Part shown: positions 1 through 13,383 of the stretch, in pieces
Numbering within the stretch: the first letter of the stretch is position 1
How the letters are laid out: every line of letters starts with the position of its first letter
Source of the DNA: Candidatus Eiseniibacteriota bacterium
Lineage (GTDB): Bacteria; Eisenbacteria; RBG-16-71-46; SZUA-252
Direction: 5' to 3'
NCBI GenBank assembly: GCA_031370645.1
Contig: JANMQV010000118.1
Location: 1-13,383 of the forward strand
Length of the DNA: 13,383 bases
Made by a program: the position numbers and the translations under genes
The notes under the pieces: generated by a model
Seen by the model: only the letters and a program-made list of their open reading frames with translations
What the model was told of the DNA's origin: nothing
Database searches by the model: none

Positions 1-1583
1 TCCCACCACTCCTCGGCCCGCGCGGCGTTCCACGGTTCGTGGAGCGGAATCGAGTCGAGGCGCCGCGCCAACTCCACCGTGCTCGCCGGGCGATCCTCGG
101 GCTTCTTCGCGAGGCAGGCGAGGATCACCCGATCGAGTTCAGGCGGGATTTCGAGTTCCGTGAGCGTCGAGGGCGGCGCCGGTTCAGCCTGGATGTGCAG
201 CAGCATCATCTTCAGCGCGTTCTCCGCTTCGAAGACGAGCCGTCCCGTGAGGAGCCAGGTGGCGACGCAGCCGAGCGCGTAGATGTCGGCTCGCGCGTCG
301 ACTTCAGTTTCGCCGAGCGCCATCTCCGGGGCCATGAACGCGGGCGTTCCGGTCGTTACGTCGGGCGAGGTGAGAAGCGTCTGCTCCTGCGACGACGCGA
401 GGTTCGTCTTCACCAAGCCGAAGTCGAGCACCTTCACGAAATCGACGCTCAGCCCGAGGCGGCAGGTGTGGATATTCGAGGGTTTGATGTCACGGTGCAC
501 CATTCCGCGAACGTGCGCCTCCCCGAGCGAGTGGCAGGCGTGTTTGATGAGATAGATCGTCCGGGCGGCCGAAATGGGGCCGAAGCGCCGCACCAGCGTT
601 TCCAGGTCGACGCCATCGAGGAGTTCCATCACGTAGTAGAAGACGCCGTCGTCGGTGACGCCGAAGTCGTAGAGGCTGATCGTGTGAGGCGAGCGGAGCG
701 AAGCCGCCGCCTGCGCCTCGCGACGAAAGCGCTGGATCGTCATCTCGGCCCCGCGATTCGTGCCGAGCGCCTCGGAGCGGATCAGTTTGATCGCCGCGGG
801 GCGGGCAAGGAAACGGTGGCGCGCCCGGTAGACTTCCCCCATTCCCCCGCGGCCGATCATCTCTCCGAGTTGATAGGAGCCGAGCTCGCGCGCCTTCCGC
901 ACCTGGCGCCCCAACGTCGCGATGAGGTGCGAAGGAATCGCGGCGAGCGCCGCGCAGATATAGATCGGAAGGAAATGCCAGATGAGGACGAAGGGATCGG
1001 TAATGAACTGTTCGCCCCGTGCGCTGGCGAGGATGAGGAAGAGCGGATCCGTGGTCGCCGCCAGTAAGGCGGTGATCGTGGTGCTCCGCGGCGTGCTCGG
1101 GACGATCGACGGATAGACCAGAATGATGATGCAGAGCCAGGAGACGCCGACGGTCTCGATCTGGGGCTTCCAGTTGAAGAGCACCGACACCAGTGCTGCC
1201 GTCGCCACTTCGTAGACGAGTCCGATTCGAAGCAGCGTCTCGGGGCGGACGCGGTGCTTCCACGCGATGAGGAACATCACCGCTGAGATGCCGATTCCGG
1301 CGCCGGCTACCAGGTTCCCCGGCATCGGCCAGATCGAGTTGACCACCATCATGTCCATGTTCATGTGGTGGAGCAGATCGTGAACCCAGTTGTTCATCAC
1401 GATCGCGATCACCCAGACCGAGGCGAAAACGATGGCCATGATGCCGAGCCGCTTGCACGACTGCTCCAGCACTTCCGCCGGAAGGCCGCGGGTGCCGAAT
1501 CGCGTCGAGCTGGTCGGGGAGGGAGACGTGGTCGCGCGAAGGCTTGTCATCGGCCGGTCGGGATGGTGAACGTGGTCCGCCAT
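1..1583 (-). CDS. Membrane-embedded Hanks-type Ser/Thr protein kinase (N-terminal multi-TM region, C-terminal kinase domain); 3' end beyond the left edge
   Basis: Manual translation of the minus strand from ATG 1583 (alternative ATG 1550) stays open to base 1. About 220 aa with several hydrophobic segments precede the kinase motifs: IGRGGMGEVY (P-loop), AAIK, RFRREA (alphaC Glu), HRDIKPSN, DFG, GTPAFMAPE and DIYALG. It is absent from the ORF track because there is no stop in the window. Confidence 0.95.
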   Translation of the reverse strand, partial: MADHVHHPDRPMTSLRATTSPSPTSSTRFGTRGLPAEVLEQSCKRLGIMAIVFASVWVIAIVMNNWVHDLLHHMNMDMMVVNSIWPMPGNLVAGAGIGISAVMFLIAWKHRVRPETLLRIGLVYEVATAALVSVLFNWKPQIETVGVSWLCIIILVYPSIVPSTPRSTTITALLAATTDPLFLILASARGEQFITDPFVLIWHFLPIYICAALAAIPSHLIATLGRQVRKARELGSYQLGEMIGRGGMGEVYRARHRFLARPAAIKLIRSEALGTNRGAEMTIQRFRREAQAAASLRSPHTISLYDFGVTDDGVFYYVMELLDGVDLETLVRRFGPISAARTIYLIKHACHSLGEAHVRGMVHRDIKPSNIHTCRLGLSVDFVKVLDFGLVKTNLASSQEQTLLTSPDVTTGTPAFMAPEMALGETEVDARADIYALGCVATWLLTGRLVFEAENALKMMLLHIQAEPAPPSTLTELEIPPELDRVILACLAKKPEDRPASTVELARRLDSIPLHEPWNAARAEEWW

Positions 1584-1590
1584 GGCGGGA

Positions 1591-3558
1591 TCATACCCCT
1601 TCAAGTTCCTCGAGTTTTCTCCAAAGACCGTCGACGTCTTTTCGAAGCGCCTCGTAACGGCCGAGGAGTTCTTTCGTACGGGCGCCGTCGGCATAGAGTG
1701 CGGGGTCGGCCAGGCTGGTTTCCACCTCTTTGAGTTCTCGCTCCCGCAGCTCCAGGTCTGCCTCCGCCTTCTCGCGCTCCCGGGCACGCTTCTTCGCCTC
1801 GTTCTTCACGGTGGGGGCGCGGCCGGACGTTGCCGGCTTCTTGGCAACGCGGCCGGTTCCGGGAGCCGCGACGACCGCCGCGGCAGGGGCAACGGGCGCC
1901 ACGGCGGCACCCCCCGGCATTCCCTGCCGTTTCGTCGCTTCGGCCTTCGCTACCCGGGCCGATTCGTAGTCGTCGTAGCCGCCCGAATAGAGGACGACGC
2001 GCCCCTCCTCCACCGCGATGATCCGCGTGGCCAAGCTCGCCATGAGGGAGCGGTCGTGCGTGACGACGAGAACCGCGCCGGGGTATTGGCGAAGCGCTCC
2101 CTCCAGCACTTCCTTTCCGGCCAAGTCGAGATGATGCGTCGGCTCGTCGAGCAGGAGGATGTTCGCCGGCTCGAGAAGCATTCGCACGATCGCCACGCGC
2201 TGCCGCTCTCCGCCCGAGAGGATGCGGCACGACTTGTAGACGTCGTCGCCGAGGAAGAGAAAATTTCCGAGAAGCGCGCGGAGGGCCGATGTCGGCGTGC
2301 CGAAGGGGGCCACGTCCTCCACGGCCTGGAGAATCGTGAGGCTCGCGTCGAGTGTTTCCGCCGCATGCTGGGCGAAGTAGGCGAGCTTCGCCTGGGGATG
2401 GAGCTCCCGCTCCCCGCGCCGAGGGTCGAGCTGTCCCGCCAAGAGCCGCAAGAGGGTCGTCTTCCCCGCGCCGTTCGCGCCGACGATCGCGATCTTGTCG
2501 CCCCGCTCGATGACGACGTTCGCGTCGGTGAAGATGTCGCGCTTGTCGTAACCGAACGAGACGCCCTCAAGCCGCGTGAGCGTGCGACCGACGTGCGGCG
2601 GCGTCGGAAACGAAAAGGAGATGTGCCGGGCCTTCCGCGGCACGACGACGCGCTGGCGCTTCAAGCGATCGATCTGCTTCATCTTGCTCGCGGCCTGCGT
2701 CGCCTTCGTGTTCTTGGCGCCGAACCGCTCCACGAATCGGGAGAGCTGGGCGATCTTCTGATCGAGCTGCTCGTTTTGCGACTCGAGCGCCTCGCGCCGC
2801 CGCTGCCGCTCCTCGAGATAGTCGGTGAACGACATGACGAACTCGTTCAGTTCCGCGTGGTCGAGCTCCCGCACCTCGTCGGTGATCCGGTCGAGGAAGA
2901 CCCGGTCGTGCGACACCACGATCAGCCCGCCATGGAACGTCTCGAGATATTCCTCCAGCCACTCCATGGCCGGCAGGTCGAGATGGTTCGTCGGCTCGTC
3001 CAGGAAGAGGAGCGTCGGGTCGGTGAGAAGGAGCGCCGCGAGCGCCACGCGCATCCGCCATCCGCCCGAGAAGGAGGCGAGCGGCCGGTCCTGGTCTTCC
3101 GTCGAGAAGCCAAGCCCCGCCAAAACGCGGCGCGCCTCCGGCACCAGCGTGTGCTCGTCCGACCGCTCGAGCGTGTGCTGGAGCTCCCCGGCCCGGTCGA
3201 GAAGGGCTTCCATTCGCGGATCCCCCGGATCGAGGGTCGGGATTTCCTGGTAGAGCGCGTCCAACTCCTCCCGCATCTCCATCAAGTGGCGGTGGGCTTC
3301 GAGGGCGCGGTCGAGCACCGTGCCCTCGAACTTCTCAGCCGCTTCCTGCGGGAGATACCCGATCCGGGTTCCGCGCGAGAGGACGCGCGTCCCCTTGTCG
3401 GGGCGAAGTTCCCCGAGGAGTACTTTCAAGAGCGTCGTCTTCCCCGCCCCGTTCGGACCGACCAAGGCGACGCGATCGCCGGGGCCGAGCGTCCAGGTAA
3501 GCCCTGTGAACAGGGCGCGTGTGCCGATGGAATAGGAGACGTCGTTCAGCCGGATCAT
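1591..3558 (-). CDS. ABC-F family ribosome-associated ATPase (YheS/YdiF/Uup-like) with C-terminal coiled-coil extension
   Basis: Two tandem ABC domains and no TM segments. Walker A motifs GPNGAGKT and GANGAGKT, signatures FSGGW and LSGGE, Walker B motifs LDEPTNHLD and LDEPTHHLD. The interdomain linker FVERFGAKNTKATQAASK is followed later by an Ala-rich linker and a charged helical C-terminal domain. Confidence 0.95.
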   Translation of the reverse strand: MIRLNDVSYSIGTRALFTGLTWTLGPGDRVALVGPNGAGKTTLLKVLLGELRPDKGTRVLSRGTRIGYLPQEAAEKFEGTVLDRALEAHRHLMEMREELDALYQEIPTLDPGDPRMEALLDRAGELQHTLERSDEHTLVPEARRVLAGLGFSTEDQDRPLASFSGGWRMRVALAALLLTDPTLLFLDEPTNHLDLPAMEWLEEYLETFHGGLIVVSHDRVFLDRITDEVRELDHAELNEFVMSFTDYLEERQRRREALESQNEQLDQKIAQLSRFVERFGAKNTKATQAASKMKQIDRLKRQRVVVPRKARHISFSFPTPPHVGRTLTRLEGVSFGYDKRDIFTDANVVIERGDKIAIVGANGAGKTTLLRLLAGQLDPRRGERELHPQAKLAYFAQHAAETLDASLTILQAVEDVAPFGTPTSALRALLGNFLFLGDDVYKSCRILSGGERQRVAIVRMLLEPANILLLDEPTHHLDLAGKEVLEGALRQYPGAVLVVTHDRSLMASLATRIIAVEEGRVVLYSGGYDDYESARVAKAEATKRQGMPGGAAVAPVAPAAAVVAAPGTGRVAKKPATSGRAPTVKNEAKKRAREREKAEADLELRERELKEVETSLADPALYADGARTKELLGRYEALRKDVDGLWRKLEELEGV

Positions 3559-3671
3559 GAGGGAGGGAGTGTACCGTTCATCCGCACTACCCTTCCACCG
3601 CTCCCTGTGGCATCCTCCCGCGGTTGCCCCGAAGGGGGTCCACGGACGGATCCAACGCCAGGAGGAACTCG

Positions 3672-4040
3672 ATGATGCGACGGTTCACGACATTCCTGTT
3701 ACTGCTGAGCGCTCTGATCATGATGGTCGGGTGCGGCGGCGATAAGGTGAAGTCGGTGCTTGCCGACGGAGAGACGAGGGCGAAGTTGATGGACGCCATT
3801 GCGGGCGACACTGCGGTCTCCGGCGAGGTGATCGACAAGCTGATGGGCGCCGAGGGAACACGGGAGCAATTGGTCGAGAAGATCCTCGGAAACGGCGACA
3901 TGATGCAGGCACTGATGGGCCGAATGTCCAAGGATCAGACGATGGTGGACGGCATCATGAATCTCGCGGTGCAGGACAGCATGATGAAGAGTCACATGAT
4001 GAGCGTGCTCCAGGGCATGCAGATGATGTCGAAGAAGTAG
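3672..4040 (+). CDS. Methionine-rich predicted lipoprotein with 14-aa helical repeats (122 aa, function unknown)
   Basis: SD AGGAGG at 3660-3665 precedes ATG 3672 (or 3675). The signal peptide MMRRFTTFLLLLSALIMMVG-C ends in a lipobox Cys21. The mature part has 15 Met in about 102 aa, and a terminator hairpin follows the gene. Confidence 0.85.
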   Translation: MMRRFTTFLLLLSALIMMVGCGGDKVKSVLADGETRAKLMDAIAGDTAVSGEVIDKLMGAEGTREQLVEKILGNGDMMQALMGRMSKDQTMVDGIMNLAVQDSMMKSHMMSVLQGMQMMSKK

Positions 4041-4073
4041 CGGTACCGACACCGATTGCGTCGAGGGAACGTC

Positions 4074-4109
4074 GGGGCCGTGGCGAAACGCCGCGGCCCC
4101 TTCTCGTTT
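4074..4109 (+). terminator. Intrinsic (Rho-independent) terminator after the lipoprotein gene
   Basis: GGGGCCGTGGCG-AAA-CGCCGCGGCCCC forms a 12-bp GC stem with one G-U pair. It is followed by TTCTCGTTT and lies 33 nt after the TAG stop. Confidence 0.75.
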
Positions 4110-4211
4110 CCGGCATCACGGCGTATTCTCGAACCGGAGCCGCGCGCAGGTTCTCCGCGACGCATCACCCGAGGCGGGAAGAACTCCCTGAGTGCCATGG
4201 AGGTGTCAACG

Positions 4212-4601
4212 ATGCCAGAGCCGTCCGCCTTGCTGTTGATCATCATTGGACTTCTGGCCGGCGTCCTTTCGGGAATGTTCGGCATCGGAGGGGGCGTCGT
4301 CATCGTTCCGGCACTGATCTACGTCGCCGGCTTCAGGCAGCATATGGCGACGGGAACGAGCCTCGCCGTGCTCCTCCCGCCCATCGGAATCGCCGCTGCC
4401 TACGAATACCATCGCCACGGAAACGTGAATATCCGTGCCGCCGCCATCATCGCCGTCGCCGTGCTGGTGGGCGGATGGCTCGGCGCCGTCGTGGCAAACC
4501 GAATGGCCGGCCCGCAACTGCGGCTCGCCTTCGGGGTCTTCGTCGTGGGACTTGGAATCTATTTGATCTACGGGGCGATGCGCCGGCTAGGCTGGCTGTA
4601 G
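4212..4601 (+). CDS. Half-size sulfite exporter TauE/SafE (TSUP) family membrane protein, 129 aa, about 4 TM
   Basis: SD GGAGGT at 4199-4204, 7 nt before ATG 4212. TSUP repeat signature GLLAGVLSGMFGIGGGVVIVPAL...A.GTSL...Y..HGNV...GGWLGA...LRLAFGVFV. Only one repeat unit is present. Confidence 0.9.
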   Translation: MPEPSALLLIIIGLLAGVLSGMFGIGGGVVIVPALIYVAGFRQHMATGTSLAVLLPPIGIAAAYEYHRHGNVNIRAAAIIAVAVLVGGWLGAVVANRMAGPQLRLAFGVFVVGLGIYLIYGAMRRLGWL

Positions 4602-4641
4602 CCCATGCAGAACGTGGTCTCGCCCGCCAGGCTGTAACGTC

Positions 4642-5325
4642 ATGCCGACCGAGTTCGACATGCGGATCAAAGTGGCCATCTACCGGCACTTCGCCGAGAC
4701 GGGCCGCGGTCCCACGCCCGCCGAGGTGGCCGACCGCGCCGGCACCGATGCCGCGACGGTGCTCGATGCGTATCCGAGACTTCGGGCGCTCCGCGTCCTG
4801 CTGCTCGAAGCCGACGGAGTCTCAATCCGGATGGCGCCGCCTTTCTCCGGCGTCCCGACGCAACATGTCGTCGTCGCGGACGGGATCCGCTACTTCGCGA
4901 ACTGCGCGTGGGACTCGTTCGGAATTCCGGCCGCGCTTCACCGGCCGGCGGAAGTGCATTCGCGGTGCGAGCAGAGCGGCGAGCCGCTTCATCTCACGAT
5001 CGGCCCGGACGGACCGGGGCCATCGGATTGGATCTATCACTGCCTTGTGCCCGCTTCCCACTGGTGGGACGACATCGGCTTTACCTGAAGCACGATGCTC
5101 TTCTTCCGGTCGGAAGAACGGGTCCGCGCGTGGTGCGTGGCGCACGACTATCCGCTGCGGCCGCTCGTCACGATCGAGCAGCTCTGGAATCTCTCCACAA
5201 CGTGGTACGCCACGCGATTGCAGGAGAATTCCCGTCGCCCCCAGCCGAACGAGATGCGGGCAATCTTCGCGGGCTTGGGATTGACGGGAGATTTCTGGGA
5301 TCCGGAGTCGGATCGGTTCGGGTAA
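4642..5325 (+). CDS. merB: MerB (organomercurial/alkylmercury lyase)-family protein, predicted selenoprotein (Sec149 at TGA 5086-5088), 227 aa
   Basis: Track ORFs 4642-5088 and 5095-5325 share a frame and are joined by TGA AGC ACG. There is an N-terminal wHTH-like segment. YFANCAWDSFGIP matches the MerB CxxD catalytic motif (Cys96/Asp99 in E. coli), and SRCEQSGEPLHLTI matches the Cys117 region. DIGFT-U-STMLFFRS aligns to the MerB C159..HFFAS segment. A SECIS-like hairpin follows the TGA. The symbol denotes family membership, not proven orthology. Confidence 0.85.
5089..5132 (+). promoter_or_regulatory. Bacterial SECIS element (selenocysteine insertion hairpin)
   Basis: Upper stem TTCTTCC (5101-5107) pairs with GGAAGAA (5112-5118) around the apical loop GGTC (5108-5111), which begins 19 nt after the UGA. 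The stem extends by GCTC/GGGT around bulged C5119 and by CACG/CGTG. The GGUC loop resembles the E. coli fdhF SECIS loop. Confidence 0.8.
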
Positions 5326-5400
5326 CGTCGGCGGGAGAATCGTGGTACGGTTTTCGGAGTGCACGTTGTCCTCAACGCCCAAAAACCATGCGAGGTGCCC

Positions 5401-5613
5401 ATGAAACCGGTTCAAATCGTCGGCCTGATCCTGATCATCGCCGGTATCTTCGTCCTCTGGAAGCACCCCACGTACGCGACGAAGAAGAACGTCATCGAAC
5501 TCGGCGATCTCAAGGCGACCGTCGATGAACGCGAAGCGGTGCCGGGCTGGCTCGGCGCCGTGAGCATCGGCGCGGGAGTGATCTTGCTGTTCGCCGGGAG
5601 TCGGAAGTCCTAG
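5401..5613 (+). CDS. Small two-TM membrane protein (DUF3185-like), 70 aa
   Basis: SD GAGGT at 5392-5396. The sequence [20 protein letters not shown]...[31 protein letters not shown] has two hydrophobic helices around a short loop. The family label is from pattern recall only. Confidence 0.75.
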
Positions 5614-5629
5614 TCGACCTGAGAACGCG

Positions 5630-6250
5630 ATGACGCCGACGGAATTCGCCCAATGGAGACCGCATCCCTGGCACGGTCTCGAGACCGGAAGGGAACCGCC
5701 GCTACAGGTGAACGCGTACATCGAGATCACGCCGTTCGATCTTATCAAGTACGAGCTCGACAAGCCGACCGGCTACCTCCGCGTCGACCGGCCGCAGCGG
5801 ACGTCATCCCAGCCACCCGCGCTCTACGGGTTCATTCCCCGCACCTACTGCGGGCAAGAAATCGCGGCGCTCTGCCCCGGGGCCGATCACGGCGACGGCG
5901 ACCCGCTCGACATCTGCGTTTTGAGCGAACGGCCGATCGCGCGCTCCGAGGTGATCATACCGTCCCGCGTCGTCGGAGGGATCCAGTTGCTTGATCGGGG
6001 CGAGGCCGACGACAAGATCCTCGCGGTCTTGGAAGGCGACTTCATGTGGAGCGGGGCTTCCGACATCACCAACCTACCCGACATTCTCGTGGAGCGGCTG
6101 GTCCACTACTTCTCTACGTACAAGCTCGTGCCGCATGCCGACGTGCAGATCGTGGTCCAGAAGACCTACGGCGTGGACCACGCGTCGCGCGTGGTGAAGG
6201 CCGCGATGGAGGACTACCGTACGCTTGTCGCCAACGCGCCGTCCCGCTGA
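5630..6250 (+). CDS. ppa: Inorganic pyrophosphatase, family I (soluble)
   Basis: Motifs HPWH, IEI, KYELDK..G.LRVDR, YGFIPRT, DGDGDPLD (catalytic), DRGEADDK and FSTYK. Confidence 0.95.
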
Positions 6251-6331
6251 ACTCGCGGGAAGTCTAGGCTCTCCCCCGCGCGCCCGAGGCTCTCTGCGAT
6301 CGCCGCATCGCGTCCGGCACCTCGGCGCTCG

Positions 6332-7705
6332 TCAGCCTACCCAAACCGTCTTCACGTTCACGAACTCACGGATTCCGAACGCCGCCAGTTCACGTCCGTA
6401 GCCCGATTCCTTCACGCCGCCGAACGGCAACCGTGGGTCGGAGCGGACGAGGCCGTTCACGAAGCAGGCTCCCGCGTCGAACTCCGTCGCGGCAATCCGC
6501 TCCCCGCGCGCCACGTCGCGCGTGAAGACCGCGGCGCCGAGACCGAACGGCGTGTCGTTGGCGAAGCGGATCGCCTCCGCTTCGTCGCGCGCCGCGATCA
6601 CCGCGGCCACGGGCCCAAACGTCTCCTCGCCGAAGACCGGCATGCCGGGGAGAACCTGGTCGAGCACCGTCGGCGGATAGAATGCGCCCGGCCCGTCGGG
6701 AACCCGCCCTCCCAACAATACGCGCGCGCCACGAGCGACGCTCGCCTGCACCTGCCGGTGAAGCTCGTCGCGAAGATCCAATCGGGCCATGGGACCGAGG
6801 TCGGGAGCCGCAGCGCCTTCCGCGAGCGGATTCCCCCATCGCTTCGCGCGCATGGCGGCGACGAATCGCTCGGTGAACGCCTCGCGAATCGGCTCGACCG
6901 CGATGAAGCGCTTCGCCGCGATGCACGACTGGCCGGCGTTGATCAACCGCGAGGCGGCGCAGGTGATCGCGGCCGCGTCGAGATCGGCATCTTCGAGAAT
7001 GACGTAGGGGTCGCTCCCTCCCAACTCGAGCACCGTTTTCTTCAGCACGGCGCCCGCCGCGGCCGCCACCGCGCGTCCCGCCGGCGCGCTCCCGGTCAGC
7101 GTGACGGCGCGAATCTGCGGCATGGCGATGATCGGCTCCACAGCGGAACCGGGAACGAGGAGCGTCGTGAAGAGTCCGTCGGGAAGCCCCGCCTCGCGGA
7201 AGATCGCCTCGATGGCGAGCGAGCAGCCCGAGACGTTCGAGGCGTGCTTCAGCACGCAGGCGTTCCCCGCCATGAGCGCCGGGGCCGCGAAGCGAAAAAC
7301 TTGCCAGAACGGAAAATTCCACGGCATCACGGCGAGCACGACGCCGAGCGGTTGAAACGAGACGTAGGAGCGCGTCGCGTCCGAAGGCGCCTCCTGCGGC
7401 GACAACATCCACGCCGCATGTTCGGCGAAGAATTCGCAGGTCCACGCGCACTTCTCCGACTCGGCGCGCCCTTGCGCGACCGGTTTTCCCATCTCCCGCG
7501 CCATCATGATCGCGTCGTCCGCCGCCCGCTCGCGAAGCCGCGCGGCGACGCGCCGCAACACGACGGCGCGCGTCTCGATTGGTTCCCGCCGCCACGAATG
7601 GTACGCGCGCTCGGCTTGATCCAACGCGACACCGATGGCTGCCGGCTTCGCTTCCGGATAGTCGCGGATCGTCTCGCCCGTTGTCGGATCGATCGATCGA
7701 AGCAT
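6332..7705 (-). CDS. gabD: NAD(P)-dependent succinate-semialdehyde dehydrogenase (ALDH superfamily, GabD1/Sad type)
   Basis: Motifs PLGVVLAVMPWNFPFWQVFRFAAP, LKHAS, LTGS, LELGGSDP (catalytic Glu), NAGQSCIAAKR (catalytic Cys), EETFGP and PFGGVKESGYGREL. Confidence 0.9.
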   Translation of the reverse strand: MLRSIDPTTGETIRDYPEAKPAAIGVALDQAERAYHSWRREPIETRAVVLRRVAARLRERAADDAIMMAREMGKPVAQGRAESEKCAWTCEFFAEHAAWMLSPQEAPSDATRSYVSFQPLGVVLAVMPWNFPFWQVFRFAAPALMAGNACVLKHASNVSGCSLAIEAIFREAGLPDGLFTTLLVPGSAVEPIIAMPQIRAVTLTGSAPAGRAVAAAAGAVLKKTVLELGGSDPYVILEDADLDAAAITCAASRLINAGQSCIAAKRFIAVEPIREAFTERFVAAMRAKRWGNPLAEGAAAPDLGPMARLDLRDELHRQVQASVARGARVLLGGRVPDGPGAFYPPTVLDQVLPGMPVFGEETFGPVAAVIAARDEAEAIRFANDTPFGLGAAVFTRDVARGERIAATEFDAGACFVNGLVRSDPRLPFGGVKESGYGRELAAFGIREFVNVKTVWVG

Positions 7706-7891
7706 CCAAACCCTCCGAACGGTTCCTGGTTGCAGCCGCCGGCGACGGCCGGAAACCTCCCGGAACCCCTGAAATCACAAGCGACTAATCCTGATGAACC
7801 GCGGGCCGAACCGTGGCAGAATGAGTCCCCCGCGCTCCGGATGCAAGCCCTCCAGGAGACCCACATGGGTTTCCGTGACGGACCGCTCCGA

Positions 7892-7907
7892 TGGCACGGG
7901 TTTCGCT
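7892..7907 (+). promoter_or_regulatory. Sigma54 (RpoN) -24/-12 promoter upstream of sucA-sucB-lpdA
   Basis: TGGCACGGGTTTCGCT matches the consensus TGGCACGNNNNTTGCW with one mismatch and exact GG-N10-GC spacing. It points toward sucA, with a predicted start site near 7918. Confidence 0.65.
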
Positions 7908-7993
7908 TGTAACCCATTGAATTCGAGCGAGCTAGGGAGTTGAGTTACGGGAGTTCCGCCCCCGCGGCTCCCGCCAAGGGACCAGACGAACCG

Positions 7994-10939
<2,946 letters not shown>

Positions 10940-10983
10940 TCCACGCCGCGCGCCGGCGCCGCTACGACACGAAAGGAAGAACG

Positions 10984-12294
10984 ATGTCCGTGGAGTTGAG
11001 AGTCCCCGAGGTCGGCGAGTCGATCACCGAAGTTCAGATCGGCGCCTGGCTGAAGGCCGAAGGCGATACCATCGAGCGCGACGAGGCGCTCGTGGAGATC
11101 GAGTCGGACAAGGCGACGCTGGAGCTTCCCGCGCCGGTCTCCGGGACTCTGACGAAGATCGTGGCGAAGAAGGGCGCGATCCTGAAGATCGGCGATCTGA
11201 TCGCCGAACTGACGGAGGGTGCTTCCACCGGGAGCGCCGCGAAGGCGCCGGCGAAGGCTGCCGCACCAGCCACGCCGGCTGCGGCGGCTGCGCCGGCCGC
11301 TCCAGTCGCTGCTTCGCCCGCGTCGGGCCCAACGCCAGCGCCAGCGCTCACGAAAGCCGCGGCCAAACCCGCGCCTGCGGCACCGCTCTCGTCCGCCGCA
11401 CCGCCGCGCGTCATGCCGGCCGCGGCCCGTGCGCTCGCCGAGGCGGGTCTTGGCGCGACCGAGGTCCGCGCGAGCGGCCCCGGCGGTCGCCTCTTGAAGG
11501 AGGACGTCGCCGCTCACGTGGCGAATCTTGGAACGAAACCTCCCGCGGCCCGCTCGCCGCTCGATCGCGCGGAGACGACGGCGCCGGCCGACGCTCGCGG
11601 CGAGGAATCCGTACCCATGAGTCCGATGCGCGTCCGCATCGCCGAGCGCCTGAAGGCGGCCCAGAACACCGCCGCCCTTCTCACGACGTTTAACGAAGTC
11701 GACATGTCGTCGGTCATCGCGCTGCGCGAGGAATTGAAAGAGCCGTTCCAAGAGCGCTACGGCGTGAAGCTCGGGTTCATGTCATTCTTCGTGAAGGCGA
11801 CGGTCGACGCGCTGATGCACTTCCCGCAAGTCAACGCCGAGATCCGCGAGCGCGACATCGTCTACAAAAACTACTTCGACATCGGCATCGCCGTCGGAGG
11901 CGGGAAGGGCCTCATCGTTCCCGTGCTCCGTAACGCCGAACGCCTCTCCTTCGCGGAAATCGAAACGGCTGTCTCCGACTTCGGCGCGCGCGCCAAGGAG
12001 AACCGCATCCAGTTGGACGAACTCTACGGCGGCACGTTCACCATCTCGAACGGCGGCGTCTACGGTTCCCTCCTCTCCACCCCGATCGTGAATCCGCCGC
12101 AGAGCGCCATCCTGGGGCTCCATGCCATCCACAAGCGGCCGGTCGCGGTGAACGACGAGGTGGTCATCCGCCCCATGATGTACCTGGCGGTCACGTACGA
12201 TCACCGCGTCATCGACGGCCGCGAGTCGGTCACCTTCCTCAAGCACATCAAAGACCTGATCGAGCGCCCCACGCGGATGCTCCTCGGGCTTTAA
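10984..12294 (+). CDS. sucB: 2-oxoglutarate dehydrogenase E2, dihydrolipoyllysine-residue succinyltransferase
   Basis: SD AAAGGA precedes ATG 10984. Lipoyl domain [10 protein letters not shown]...ESDKA, Ala/Pro linker, E3-binding domain MPAAAR...[12 protein letters not shown], then LTTFNEVDM and catalytic [10 protein letters not shown]. Confidence 0.96.
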
Positions 12295-12301
12295 TTCGAC
12301 C

Positions 12302-13383
12302 ATGAGCGCCATTTCCGTCACTCACGATCTCGTCATCGTCGGTTCCGGCCCCGGCGGCTACGTCGCCGCCATTCGCGCGGCGCAACTCGGCATGAACGTC
12401 GCCTGCATCGAGGAAGAACCGGCGCTCGGCGGCACCTGCCTCCGCGTCGGCTGCATCCCGAGCAAGGCGCTTCTGGAGTCGAGTGAGCGCTACCACGAGA
12501 CGAAGACAGCCCTCGCCGCGCATGGCGTCAAGGTGGAGGGCGTCGCGCTCGATCTCCCCGTCATGCTGAAACGGAAGGATCAGATCGTCACCGACCTGAC
12601 GCGCGGCGTGGAGATGCTCTTCAAGAAGAACAAGGTGACGCGCTACGCGGGGCATGGCCGGCTGGCGGGCGGAGGACGCGTGGTCGTGGCCGGCGCCGAT
12701 GGCGCCGTGGTCGCGGAACTGCGGGCGAAGCAGATCTTGATCGCCACCGGATCGAAGCCGACTTCGCTCAAGGGCGTGGCGTTCGACGGCGACCGGATCG
12801 GCGGCAGTACAGAAGGGCTCGCTTACGCGGAAGTCCCGAAGCACTTGGTCGTGATCGGCGCCGGCTACATCGGACTCGAACTCGGCTCGGTCTGGCTCCG
12901 GCTCGGCGCGAAGGTCACCGTGCTTGAATACCTCGACCGCATCCTCCCCGGCATGGACAGCGACCTCGCGACCGAAGCGAAGCGGATCTTCGAGCGCCAG
13001 GGAATGACCTTCCACCTGGGCCGGCGCGTCACCGGCGCGAAGGTCGAGAAGAAGGAAGTCGTCGTGGAGTCCGAGGGTGCCGAGCCGATCCGCTGCGACC
13101 GACTCCTCGTCGCCGTGGGGCGCGTTCCGAACACCGACAACCTCGGTCTCGACGCCGTCGGACTCAAGACGGATGAGCGAGGGCGCATCCCGGTCGACGC
13201 CGACTACGCCACGTCCGCCGCCGGCATCTACGCCATCGGCGACGTGATCGGCGGGGCCATGCTCGCCCACAAGGCGGAAGAAGAGGGAATCGCCTGCGTG
13301 GAGCGGATCGCCACCGGCTACGGCCACGTGAACTACGACGCCATTCCCGGCGTCGTCTACACGCATCCGGAGATCGCGTCGGT
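12302..13383 (+). CDS. lpdA: Dihydrolipoyl dehydrogenase (E3); 3' end beyond the right edge
   Basis: Manual translation from ATG 12302 gives DLVIVGSGPGGYVAAIRAAQLG (FAD binding), GGTCLRVGCIPSK (redox disulfide), VIGAGYIGLELG (NAD binding), YAIGDV and MLAHKAEEEG. It is open to the window end and starts 7 nt after the sucB stop. It is missing from the ORF track. Confidence 0.96.
   Translation, partial: MSAISVTHDLVIVGSGPGGYVAAIRAAQLGMNVACIEEEPALGGTCLRVGCIPSKALLESSERYHETKTALAAHGVKVEGVALDLPVMLKRKDQIVTDLTRGVEMLFKKNKVTRYAGHGRLAGGGRVVVAGADGAVVAELRAKQILIATGSKPTSLKGVAFDGDRIGGSTEGLAYAEVPKHLVVIGAGYIGLELGSVWLRLGAKVTVLEYLDRILPGMDSDLATEAKRIFERQGMTFHLGRRVTGAKVEKKEVVVESEGAEPIRCDRLLVAVGRVPNTDNLGLDAVGLKTDERGRIPVDADYATSAAGIYAIGDVIGGAMLAHKAEEEGIACVERIATGYGHVNYDAIPGVVYTHPEIAS

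Follow-up and report, generated by a model that had tools for sequence, protein, structure and literature searches.

The forward strand of a contig from a Candidatus Eiseniibacteriota bacterium (GenBank assembly GCA_031370645.1, contig JANMQV010000118.1, positions 1 to 13,383; this 13,383-nucleotide stretch is termed the window) carries at positions 4642–5325 what its sequence indicates is one real, intact selenoprotein gene of predicted function. The complete gene (ATG at 4642, TAA at 5323–5325) would encode a 227-residue selenoprotein with the fold of the organomercurial lyase MerB by reading through a single UGA codon, an assignment based on the reading frame together with Pfam, phmmer, AlphaFold2, and Foldseek. 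We judge it probable that this interpretation holds as a whole, i.e., that the UGA is recoded as selenocysteine (Sec) and that the product is a MerB-type carbon–metal lyase acting without MerA, on the basis of sequence comparison, structural modeling, and analogy. The frame comprises 227 codons followed by TAA, and its sole in-frame stop is the TGA at 5086–5088 (codon 149), which lies in the context WWDDIGFT-[TGA]-STMLFFRSEE. Translation with genetic code table 11 cuts the gene into two open reading frames (ORFs) of the same frame, 4642–5088 (148 residues) and 5095–5325 (76 residues). An initial annotation, made from the DNA sequence alone, had claimed that the two ORFs lie in one frame across the TGA, that the downstream ORF has no ribosome-binding site of its own, and that the gene would be annotated as fragments. 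The first claim agrees with the single frame interrupted by one stop; direct reading of the sequence revealed no purine-rich Shine-Dalgarno-like stretch upstream of the ATG at 5095; and the corresponding database entry is a protein of 148 residues identical to the first ORF.

The conservation of the TGA was evaluated by a scan that used one genome per species and search patterns lacking the TGA. The scan gave 429 relatives, and the 81-sequence sets described below consist of the best 80 of these 429 related loci plus the window copy. The aligned codon was TGA in all 80 related loci (60–74% identity, 14 phylum labels), and the tblastn matches ran through it. Each of the 81 read-through frames contained exactly one internal stop, and the column was occupied by TGA, never TAA or TAG, in 81 of 81 sequences, whereas the true terminators of these sequences were TGA (32), TAG (26), and TAA (22), the remaining sequence being truncated by a contig end. 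Exactly 78 codons separated the TGA from the true stop in 57 of the 81. The mean amino acid entropy was 1.02 downstream of the TGA versus 1.04 upstream, and the third-position entropies of 1.33 and 1.41, respectively, are those of free third positions. In a separate set of 61 genomes of relatives (that of the window included), 13 contained a match; 12 of these carried one TGA, and the thirteenth, at 28% identity, had none. This pattern lies far beyond chance. Contigs from a second study span 4500–5390 with one difference, located at 4750 and not at the TGA, and further contigs from that study cover 5043–5298 and 5052–5212 with zero differences; since these independent contigs keep the TGA, it is not an assembly error. 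The initial annotation had allowed that the TGA might be an error or a private nonsense mutation; the 80 relatives and the second-study contigs, which all hold TGA, dispose of that concern. The pyrophosphatase and aldehyde dehydrogenase genes of the window also end in TGA, and their Pfam matches reach the profile ends. An alternative genetic code with TGA as Trp or Gly was excluded, TGA being the ordinary stop for these two genes.

In databases the family takes a different form. Of the best 120 matches listed by a word-indexed search of 5.8 billion proteins, 115 were 145–149 residues long and covered 63–65% of the query; six of the short matches were aligned, and all ended at ...FT. Orphan C-terminal pieces beginning at Met152 exist as separate database entries. 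These records are what would be expected were the UGA a real stop, yielding a 148-residue protein with or without a 76-residue product from the ATG at 5095, or were the gene a pseudogene or an assembly error. Such an explanation is hard to reconcile with a column that holds only TGA when all three stops serve as true terminators, or with 78 downstream codons that stay in frame and are as conserved as those upstream. Moreover, neither the MerB fold nor the Pfam model is complete without both parts, the ATG at 5095 lacks a Shine-Dalgarno-like stretch, and independent contigs agree on the TGA. We consider it highly improbable that the UGA terminates translation, and on these sequence comparisons the possibility appears close to refuted.

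An exhaustive search of 1.84 billion representatives with residues 130–227 returned as its closest matches the C-terminal pieces from Met152, followed by full-length proteins of ∼220–235 residues. The word-indexed search with the C-terminal part gave only 6 proteins (124–398 residues), and finding the Cys-type homologues required the exhaustive search. In 29 aligned full-length homologues (26–38% identity) the Sec column was occupied by Cys in 25, Trp in 2, Ala in 1, and Arg in 1. Having Cys at this column in distant homologues is, as judged from the alignment, the Sec/Cys pattern that true selenoprotein families usually show. Thus, the comparison of homologues that the initial annotation had called for gave TGA in the close relatives (80/80) and Cys in the distant full-length ones (25/29), with conservation on both sides. 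The Cys-type MerB-like proteins of ∼220–235 residues (for example, P0154, P0155, and P0158) share length, architecture, and the C-terminal tail with the window protein but, unlike the window gene, have neither a UGA nor a selenocysteine insertion sequence (SECIS) element. Other features of the distant homologues were recorded separately. Homologue P0003 has Cys at the column, and its counterpart of the hairpin-coding MLFFRSEE segment is replaced or shortened. P0007, P0174, and P0206 have Trp in the column, and in these cases an annotator possibly translated TGA as Trp. In 11 of the 29 distant full-length homologues, as read from the alignment by eye, a Cys replaces the Asp at the Asp91 column, giving C-x-x-C plus a third Cys, which hints at a different metal site in this subgroup.

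A SECIS-like hairpin follows the UGA at 5097–5123 on the forward strand, as seen from the fold, the 81-sequence alignment, and invariance at synonymous sites. Its apical stem of 7 bp pairs 5101–5107 with 5112–5118 (UUCUUCC with GGAAGAA) and closes a GGUC loop at 5108–5111; a weaker lower stem pairs 5097–5100 with 5120–5123. The loop starts after 19 bases from the UGA. SelB-dependent Sec insertion needs a SECIS-type hairpin, and well-studied hairpins bound by SelB typically have GGUC at their apex. Across the 81 aligned sequences the loop does not vary, nor do most bases of the stem; the rare stem changes replace A with G in the 3′ strand and retain U-G pairs. Synonymous variation was analyzed at the 86 degenerate codon columns with conservation of 90% or more, with invariance defined as a synonymous entropy of at most 0.1. 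Only 4 of the 86 columns fell within this limit, and they are the consecutive codons 154–157, i.e., TTC (80/81), TTC (81), CGG (81), and TCG (81). The median synonymous entropy over the 86 columns was 1.455, and every other fourfold or sixfold degenerate codon had a value of 1.2–2.4. The invariance of codons 154–157 thus reads as a constraint on the RNA rather than on the protein. A search of the window against Rfam at gathering thresholds gave zero matches, and we know of no curated bacterial SECIS model that ought to have matched. We conclude from the alignments that the TGA is a family-wide trait with its own conserved SECIS-like hairpin and is not peculiar to the window copy. As a separate observation, the contig depth of two sediment runs climbs from ∼6 to 87–130 at 5044–5111 and only there, the extra depth arising from short contigs that are 90–95% alike. 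The peak suggests that many other organisms in the samples carry the same WWDD...UGA...hairpin segment.

The machinery for Sec insertion was found in the genome to which the window belongs, an assembly that is 95% complete and 0.27% contaminated. The genes that the initial annotation had proposed to look for are all there: selA (SelA, 480.4 bits), selD (SelD, 353.7 bits), selB (one copy; SelB wing domain, 69.7 bits), and the tRNA for Sec (tRNA-Sec), for which two genes with anticodon UCA scored 67.5 and 64.5 bits. The selD gene (G000:C103:5013-5936 (+)) is itself a selenoprotein gene, with an in-frame TGA (position 1531 of locus L011) in a C-x-x-U-x-x-K context and, 17 nucleotides on, a hairpin of 5 bp whose loop is GGA; the canonical tRNA-Sec gene (G000:C103:6057-6150 (+); L001:1501-1598) follows ∼120 bases downstream of selD. 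Among the 37 genomes searched, 34 contained tRNA-Sec. Taken together, the TGA column in 80 of 80 relatives, the Cys in 25 of 29 distant homologues, the Sec machinery, and the independent contigs uphold the proposal of the initial annotation, and we are nearly certain that the UGA is recoded as Sec.

The second, divergent tRNA-Sec-like gene (G000:C167:16685-16779 (-); L002:1499-1595) has an anticodon UCA, an acceptor stem of 8 bp, a T stem of 5 bp, a D stem of 6 bp, and a long variable arm, and its CCA is not encoded. It agrees with the canonical tRNA-Sec beside selD in only about half of its columns. Of 8 genomes of the genus, 6 had two tRNA-Sec matches above the Rfam cut-off; none of the 29 relatives searched outside it did. 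The divergent UCA tRNA is therefore a genus trait and not contamination. Its existence raises the question of whether UGA 149 is read as Cys, Trp, or some other residue by way of this tRNA, a notion that could also draw on the Trp found in the column of two database homologues. The TGA, however, is kept across many phyla, yet the second tRNA was absent from all 29 relatives outside the genus. In addition, only one SelB was found in the genome, TGA is a normal stop in the window, and the family has the type of hairpin demanded by SelB-dependent Sec insertion. Decoding as a residue other than Sec is accordingly given very little probability.

The relationship of the read-through protein to MerB was assessed by profile, sequence, and structural comparisons. 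The Pfam MerB domain (PF03243) matched residues 68–189, across the TGA, and covered profile positions 1–125 of 126 (E value of 3.7e-29; 101.7 bits compared to a gathering threshold of 27). Alignment by phmmer to the solved structures of MerB2 (5C17) and MerB (3F2G and others) matched Cys88 to the first catalytic Cys, Asp91 to the catalytic Asp, the TGA column to the Cys just before the FF/YF motif, and the Cys of the HSRC sequence to a further conserved, structural Cys of MerB. The MerB residues at the bound mercury in structure 3F0P are Cys96, Asp99, and Cys159, according to the available text of a preprint (Haft & Gwadz, bioRxiv 10.1101/2022.07.06.499078). The codons for Cys88-Ala-Trp-Asp91 (CAWD), aligned with Cys96 and Asp99 of MerB, are located at 4903–4914 on the forward strand, and the UGA at 5086–5088 falls in the Cys159 column; the claim of the initial annotation that Cys88 and Asp91 are intact and that the TGA sits at the Cys159-equivalent place is therefore borne out by the alignment to the solved chains. 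No variation occurs among the 40 aligned members at Cys88, Ala89, Trp90, Asp91, Cys109, or the Sec column, and Thr148 is invariant in 81 of 81 sequences. An AlphaFold2 model that used 40 family members had a mean predicted local distance difference test score (pLDDT) of 91.4 and a predicted template modeling score (pTM) of 0.89. When this model was compared to the PDB by Foldseek, the best 11 matches were all MerB or MerB2 (E values of 2.3e-12 to 1.1e-7, template modeling scores of 0.52–0.71), and the next match had an E value of 0.07. The 78 codons on the 3′ side of the UGA (5089–5322, forward strand) are conserved and are predicted to provide the strands and helices that complete the MerB fold, then a conserved, family-specific C-terminal tail of ∼38 residues beyond the Pfam domain (approximately residues 190–227). 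The fold and the Pfam model thus need both parts, just as the initial annotation had argued in describing the MerB fold as incomplete without the downstream piece. The sequence and the model identify a predicted metal site composed of Cys88, Asp91, and Sec149 in a relative of MerB.

Comparison to the characterized organomercurial lyase MerB (Enzyme Commission number 4.99.1.2; plasmid R831b; 3F0O, 3F0P, 3F2F, and 1S6L) and MerB2 (5C17) shows a shared fold with the same first catalytic Cys, the same Asp, and the same structural Cys (HSRC in the window protein) at an identity of 22–24%. Where MerB has its second catalytic Cys, the window protein has the UGA (Sec), a related but chemically different residue, and, unlike MerB, it bears the conserved C-terminal tail of ∼38 residues outside the Pfam domain. 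The other reference point is SaoL, the 'selenocysteine-assisted organometallic lyase' (NF040728), which the available preprint text describes as marking a nine-gene SAO locus in strict anaerobes (Haft & Gwadz, bioRxiv 10.1101/2022.07.06.499078). As far as that text goes, SaoL and the window protein both have the MerB fold, Sec in the Cys159 column, and Cys and Asp at the other catalytic columns, and both are routinely cut at the UGA in databases. They differ in several respects. The window protein scored 38.8 bits with NF040728 versus a cut-off of 140, the match being confined to residues 46–120. In the same partial account the SaoL motif is C-U and its gene has the SAO locus in strict anaerobes, whereas the window family has T-U (T148-U149) and no conserved neighbor, and its members are labeled Acidobacteriota, Verrucomicrobiota, Chloroflexota, Eisenbacteria, Gemmatimonadota, and others. 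The SAO neighborhood was not seen at the window gene in a Pfam scan of the neighbors, the other SAO models not having been searched by accession. Identity with SaoL was rejected on model score, T-U motif, and gene context. Hence, the statement of the initial annotation that Sec-containing MerB-like proteins are known and that the class is not new is correct insofar as SaoL has been described, but it does not extend to the window protein, which lies outside SaoL by model, motif, and context. No model of NCBIfam release 20.0 was passed by the window protein. Two catalogue reviews (PMC9312934 and PMC13188914) hold, in their available text, one MerB-like entry with the same accession in both, which the 2026 review gives as SaoL (NF040728, motif CU). 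SaoL was the only MerB-like selenoprotein that we found in the papers searched, and the supplementary tables of selenoproteome surveys could still list the family. The sequence comparisons place the window protein in a separate, apparently uncatalogued Sec clade of the MerB family.

We propose the following scheme for the synthesis and action of the protein. SelB and tRNA-Sec would insert Sec at UGA 149, directed by the GGUC-loop hairpin 19 nucleotides downstream. The soft metal of an organometallic substrate would then be bound by the Cys88 thiolate and the Sec149 selenolate, and Asp91 would donate a proton to the departing carbon, so that protonolysis cleaves the carbon–metal bond, by analogy to MerB. 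The most likely substrate would be an organomercurial such as methylmercury, and the enzyme, encoded by a stand-alone gene, would work without a mer operon and without MerA. Sec insertion itself, the lyase activity, the substrate, and the exit of the metal product from the Cys/Sec site are the parts of this scheme that we infer. Sec would presumably act as a more reactive nucleophile than Cys, as the initial annotation had suggested. Selone mimics of organomercurial lyase are described, in the available text of a review section (PMC11639659, section 4.3), as cleaving Hg–C bonds faster than their sulfur analogues. A carbon–metal lyase is our best guess for the activity by analogy to MerB, and whether the protein specifically cleaves C–Hg bonds seems to us an evenly balanced proposition.

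Several results weigh against the interpretation as a MerA-independent, MerB-type lyase made by Sec insertion. On the RNA side, the genome of origin contains the divergent tRNA with anticodon UCA described above. A covariation test of the hairpin found that 93.8% of the cells pair, compared to 93.5% in shuffled alignments, with the observed value reached by 127 of 500 shuffles; because the invariant stem does not vary, this test is uninformative. Slid controls paired at 46–60%. The support for the hairpin consists of invariance and the potential to pair, and part of that invariance may reflect a conserved FFRSEE peptide. On the protein side, the scores with the NCBIfam MerB equivalog models (NF033555/PRK13239) were far below threshold (46.7 versus a cut-off of 200 and 55.9 versus 193), and identity with canonical MerB was rejected on these values. 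The genomic context likewise offers no connection to mercury. No mer gene was found within the window, every family from an all-against-all clustering of flanking ORFs was confined to 6 or fewer of the 80 loci, and a Pfam search of 20 flanking ORFs from 15 related loci assigned 13, of which zero were mercury related. For MerA, the best score in the genome of origin was 326.9 compared to a cut-off of 454.45, and among the 61 genomes of relatives the cut-off was exceeded in 2, both of them noncarriers of the gene, and in 0 of the 13 carriers. Finally, Hg–Se binding is very tight and MerB normally passes its Hg(II) product to MerA, so that the release of Hg(II) from the Cys/Sec site in the absence of MerA is a difficulty for the scheme. 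Because of this product-release problem, roles in metal capture or sensing and in redox chemistry stay alive.

With regard to the first of these roles, the Cys/Asp/Sec site might grip Hg(II), methylmercury, or another soft metal, with the protein serving as a sink, a chaperone, or a metal-sensing regulator that acts through a winged-helix-like N-terminal domain. The tightness of Hg–Se binding favors capture over turnover, and we found neither a MerA to take the product nor a mer context. The N-terminal 60 residues also gave weak winged-helix matches, both to Pfam models (Sigma70_r3, HTH_IclR, and HTH_20; E values of 0.006–0.19) and in Foldseek (LexA and DtxR; E values of 0.1–0.6). The same N-terminal domain is present in MerB, however, which is an enzyme, and all 40 aligned members keep Asp91, the proton donor, for which a protein that only binds metal would have no use; nor is there a conserved operator or divergent target gene beside the gene. 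We therefore regard a binder or sensor as unlikely. As for redox chemistry, Cys88 and Sec149 might form a selenenylsulfide in a thiol/selenol oxidoreductase built on a reused MerB scaffold. The two columns correspond to residues that together bind a single Hg atom in MerB and hence are expected to be close, and most prokaryotic selenoprotein families are called redox proteins in the available text of reviews. In opposition to this idea, there is no thioredoxin-like motif or fold, the overall fold and the three catalytic columns correspond to those of MerB, and no redox partner gene is conserved nearby. An oxidoreductase is thus a quite improbable assignment, and the MerB-type carbon–metal lyase with Sec149 remains the interpretation that we prefer.

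The gene is patchily distributed among the relatives. Of the other genomes searched, 12 of 36 from the same family and 1 of 7 from the same genus carried it, and the 24 drawn from different families of the class gave no match; the genome of origin has a single MerB-family gene. In a quick maximum-likelihood tree of the 81 proteins, the 14 phylum labels required 28 changes (minimum of 13, shuffled mean of 48.9), a result that fits vertical descent within clades combined with what may have been repeated transfer; binning errors in metagenome-assembled genomes (MAGs) are possible. The window copy pairs weakly (Shimodaira-Hasegawa-like approximate likelihood ratio test support of 80) with the copy of a Candidatus Eisenbacteria MAG, in which the pyrophosphatase is also present (88.7% identity). 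The family is widespread in soil and sediment bacteria.

The other genes of the window encode a Ser/Thr kinase, a Met-rich lipoprotein, a short TauE-like permease, a small membrane protein, an inorganic pyrophosphatase, an aldehyde dehydrogenase, the E1, E2, and E3 components of 2-oxoglutarate dehydrogenase, and an ABC-type ATPase, the last being called from its Walker motif by eye. As tallied, six of the seven neighbor proteins searched had no match beside the gene in the 80 loci, the exceptions being the pyrophosphatase (L054) and a weak ABC-type ATPase match (L065 and L013). The predicted lipoprotein (3672–4040, forward strand) is small, has a signal peptide ending in Cys and 19 Met among its 122 residues, and has no Pfam match. 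It is succeeded on the same strand by the TauE-like permease (4056–4601) and then the MerB-like gene, an order that the 80 related loci do not conserve. The same-frame ORFs at 3624–4040 and 4056–4601 raised the possibility that the TauE-like gene encodes another selenoprotein, which was rejected; the intervening stop is TAG, and these are two genes.

Public databases list this family only as 'hypothetical proteins' of 146–148 residues and orphan C-terminal pieces, for which joining the two ORFs at the UGA is a simple and general remedy. If the protein is made as read, the family would be a new selenoprotein group for prokaryotic catalogues, whose only MerB-like entry, in their available text, is SaoL, and surveys of mercury-cycling genes that demand Cys159 or full length would miss it. 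A tentative extension, which we hold to be possible but rather doubtful, is that the protein is a widespread MerA-independent demethylase of methylmercury or other organometals in bacteria of soils and sediments, in which the selenolate would speed C–Hg protonolysis and retain Hg(II) as a Hg–Se/S complex rather than hand it over to MerA; if so, merB surveys would be blind to the family, its copies being cut at the UGA. Under the same proviso, a large MerB-like family whose metal site is Cys/Asp/Sec would exist in phyla that are common in soils and sediments, offering a natural test of Cys-to-Sec replacement at the well-understood site of a carbon–metal lyase.

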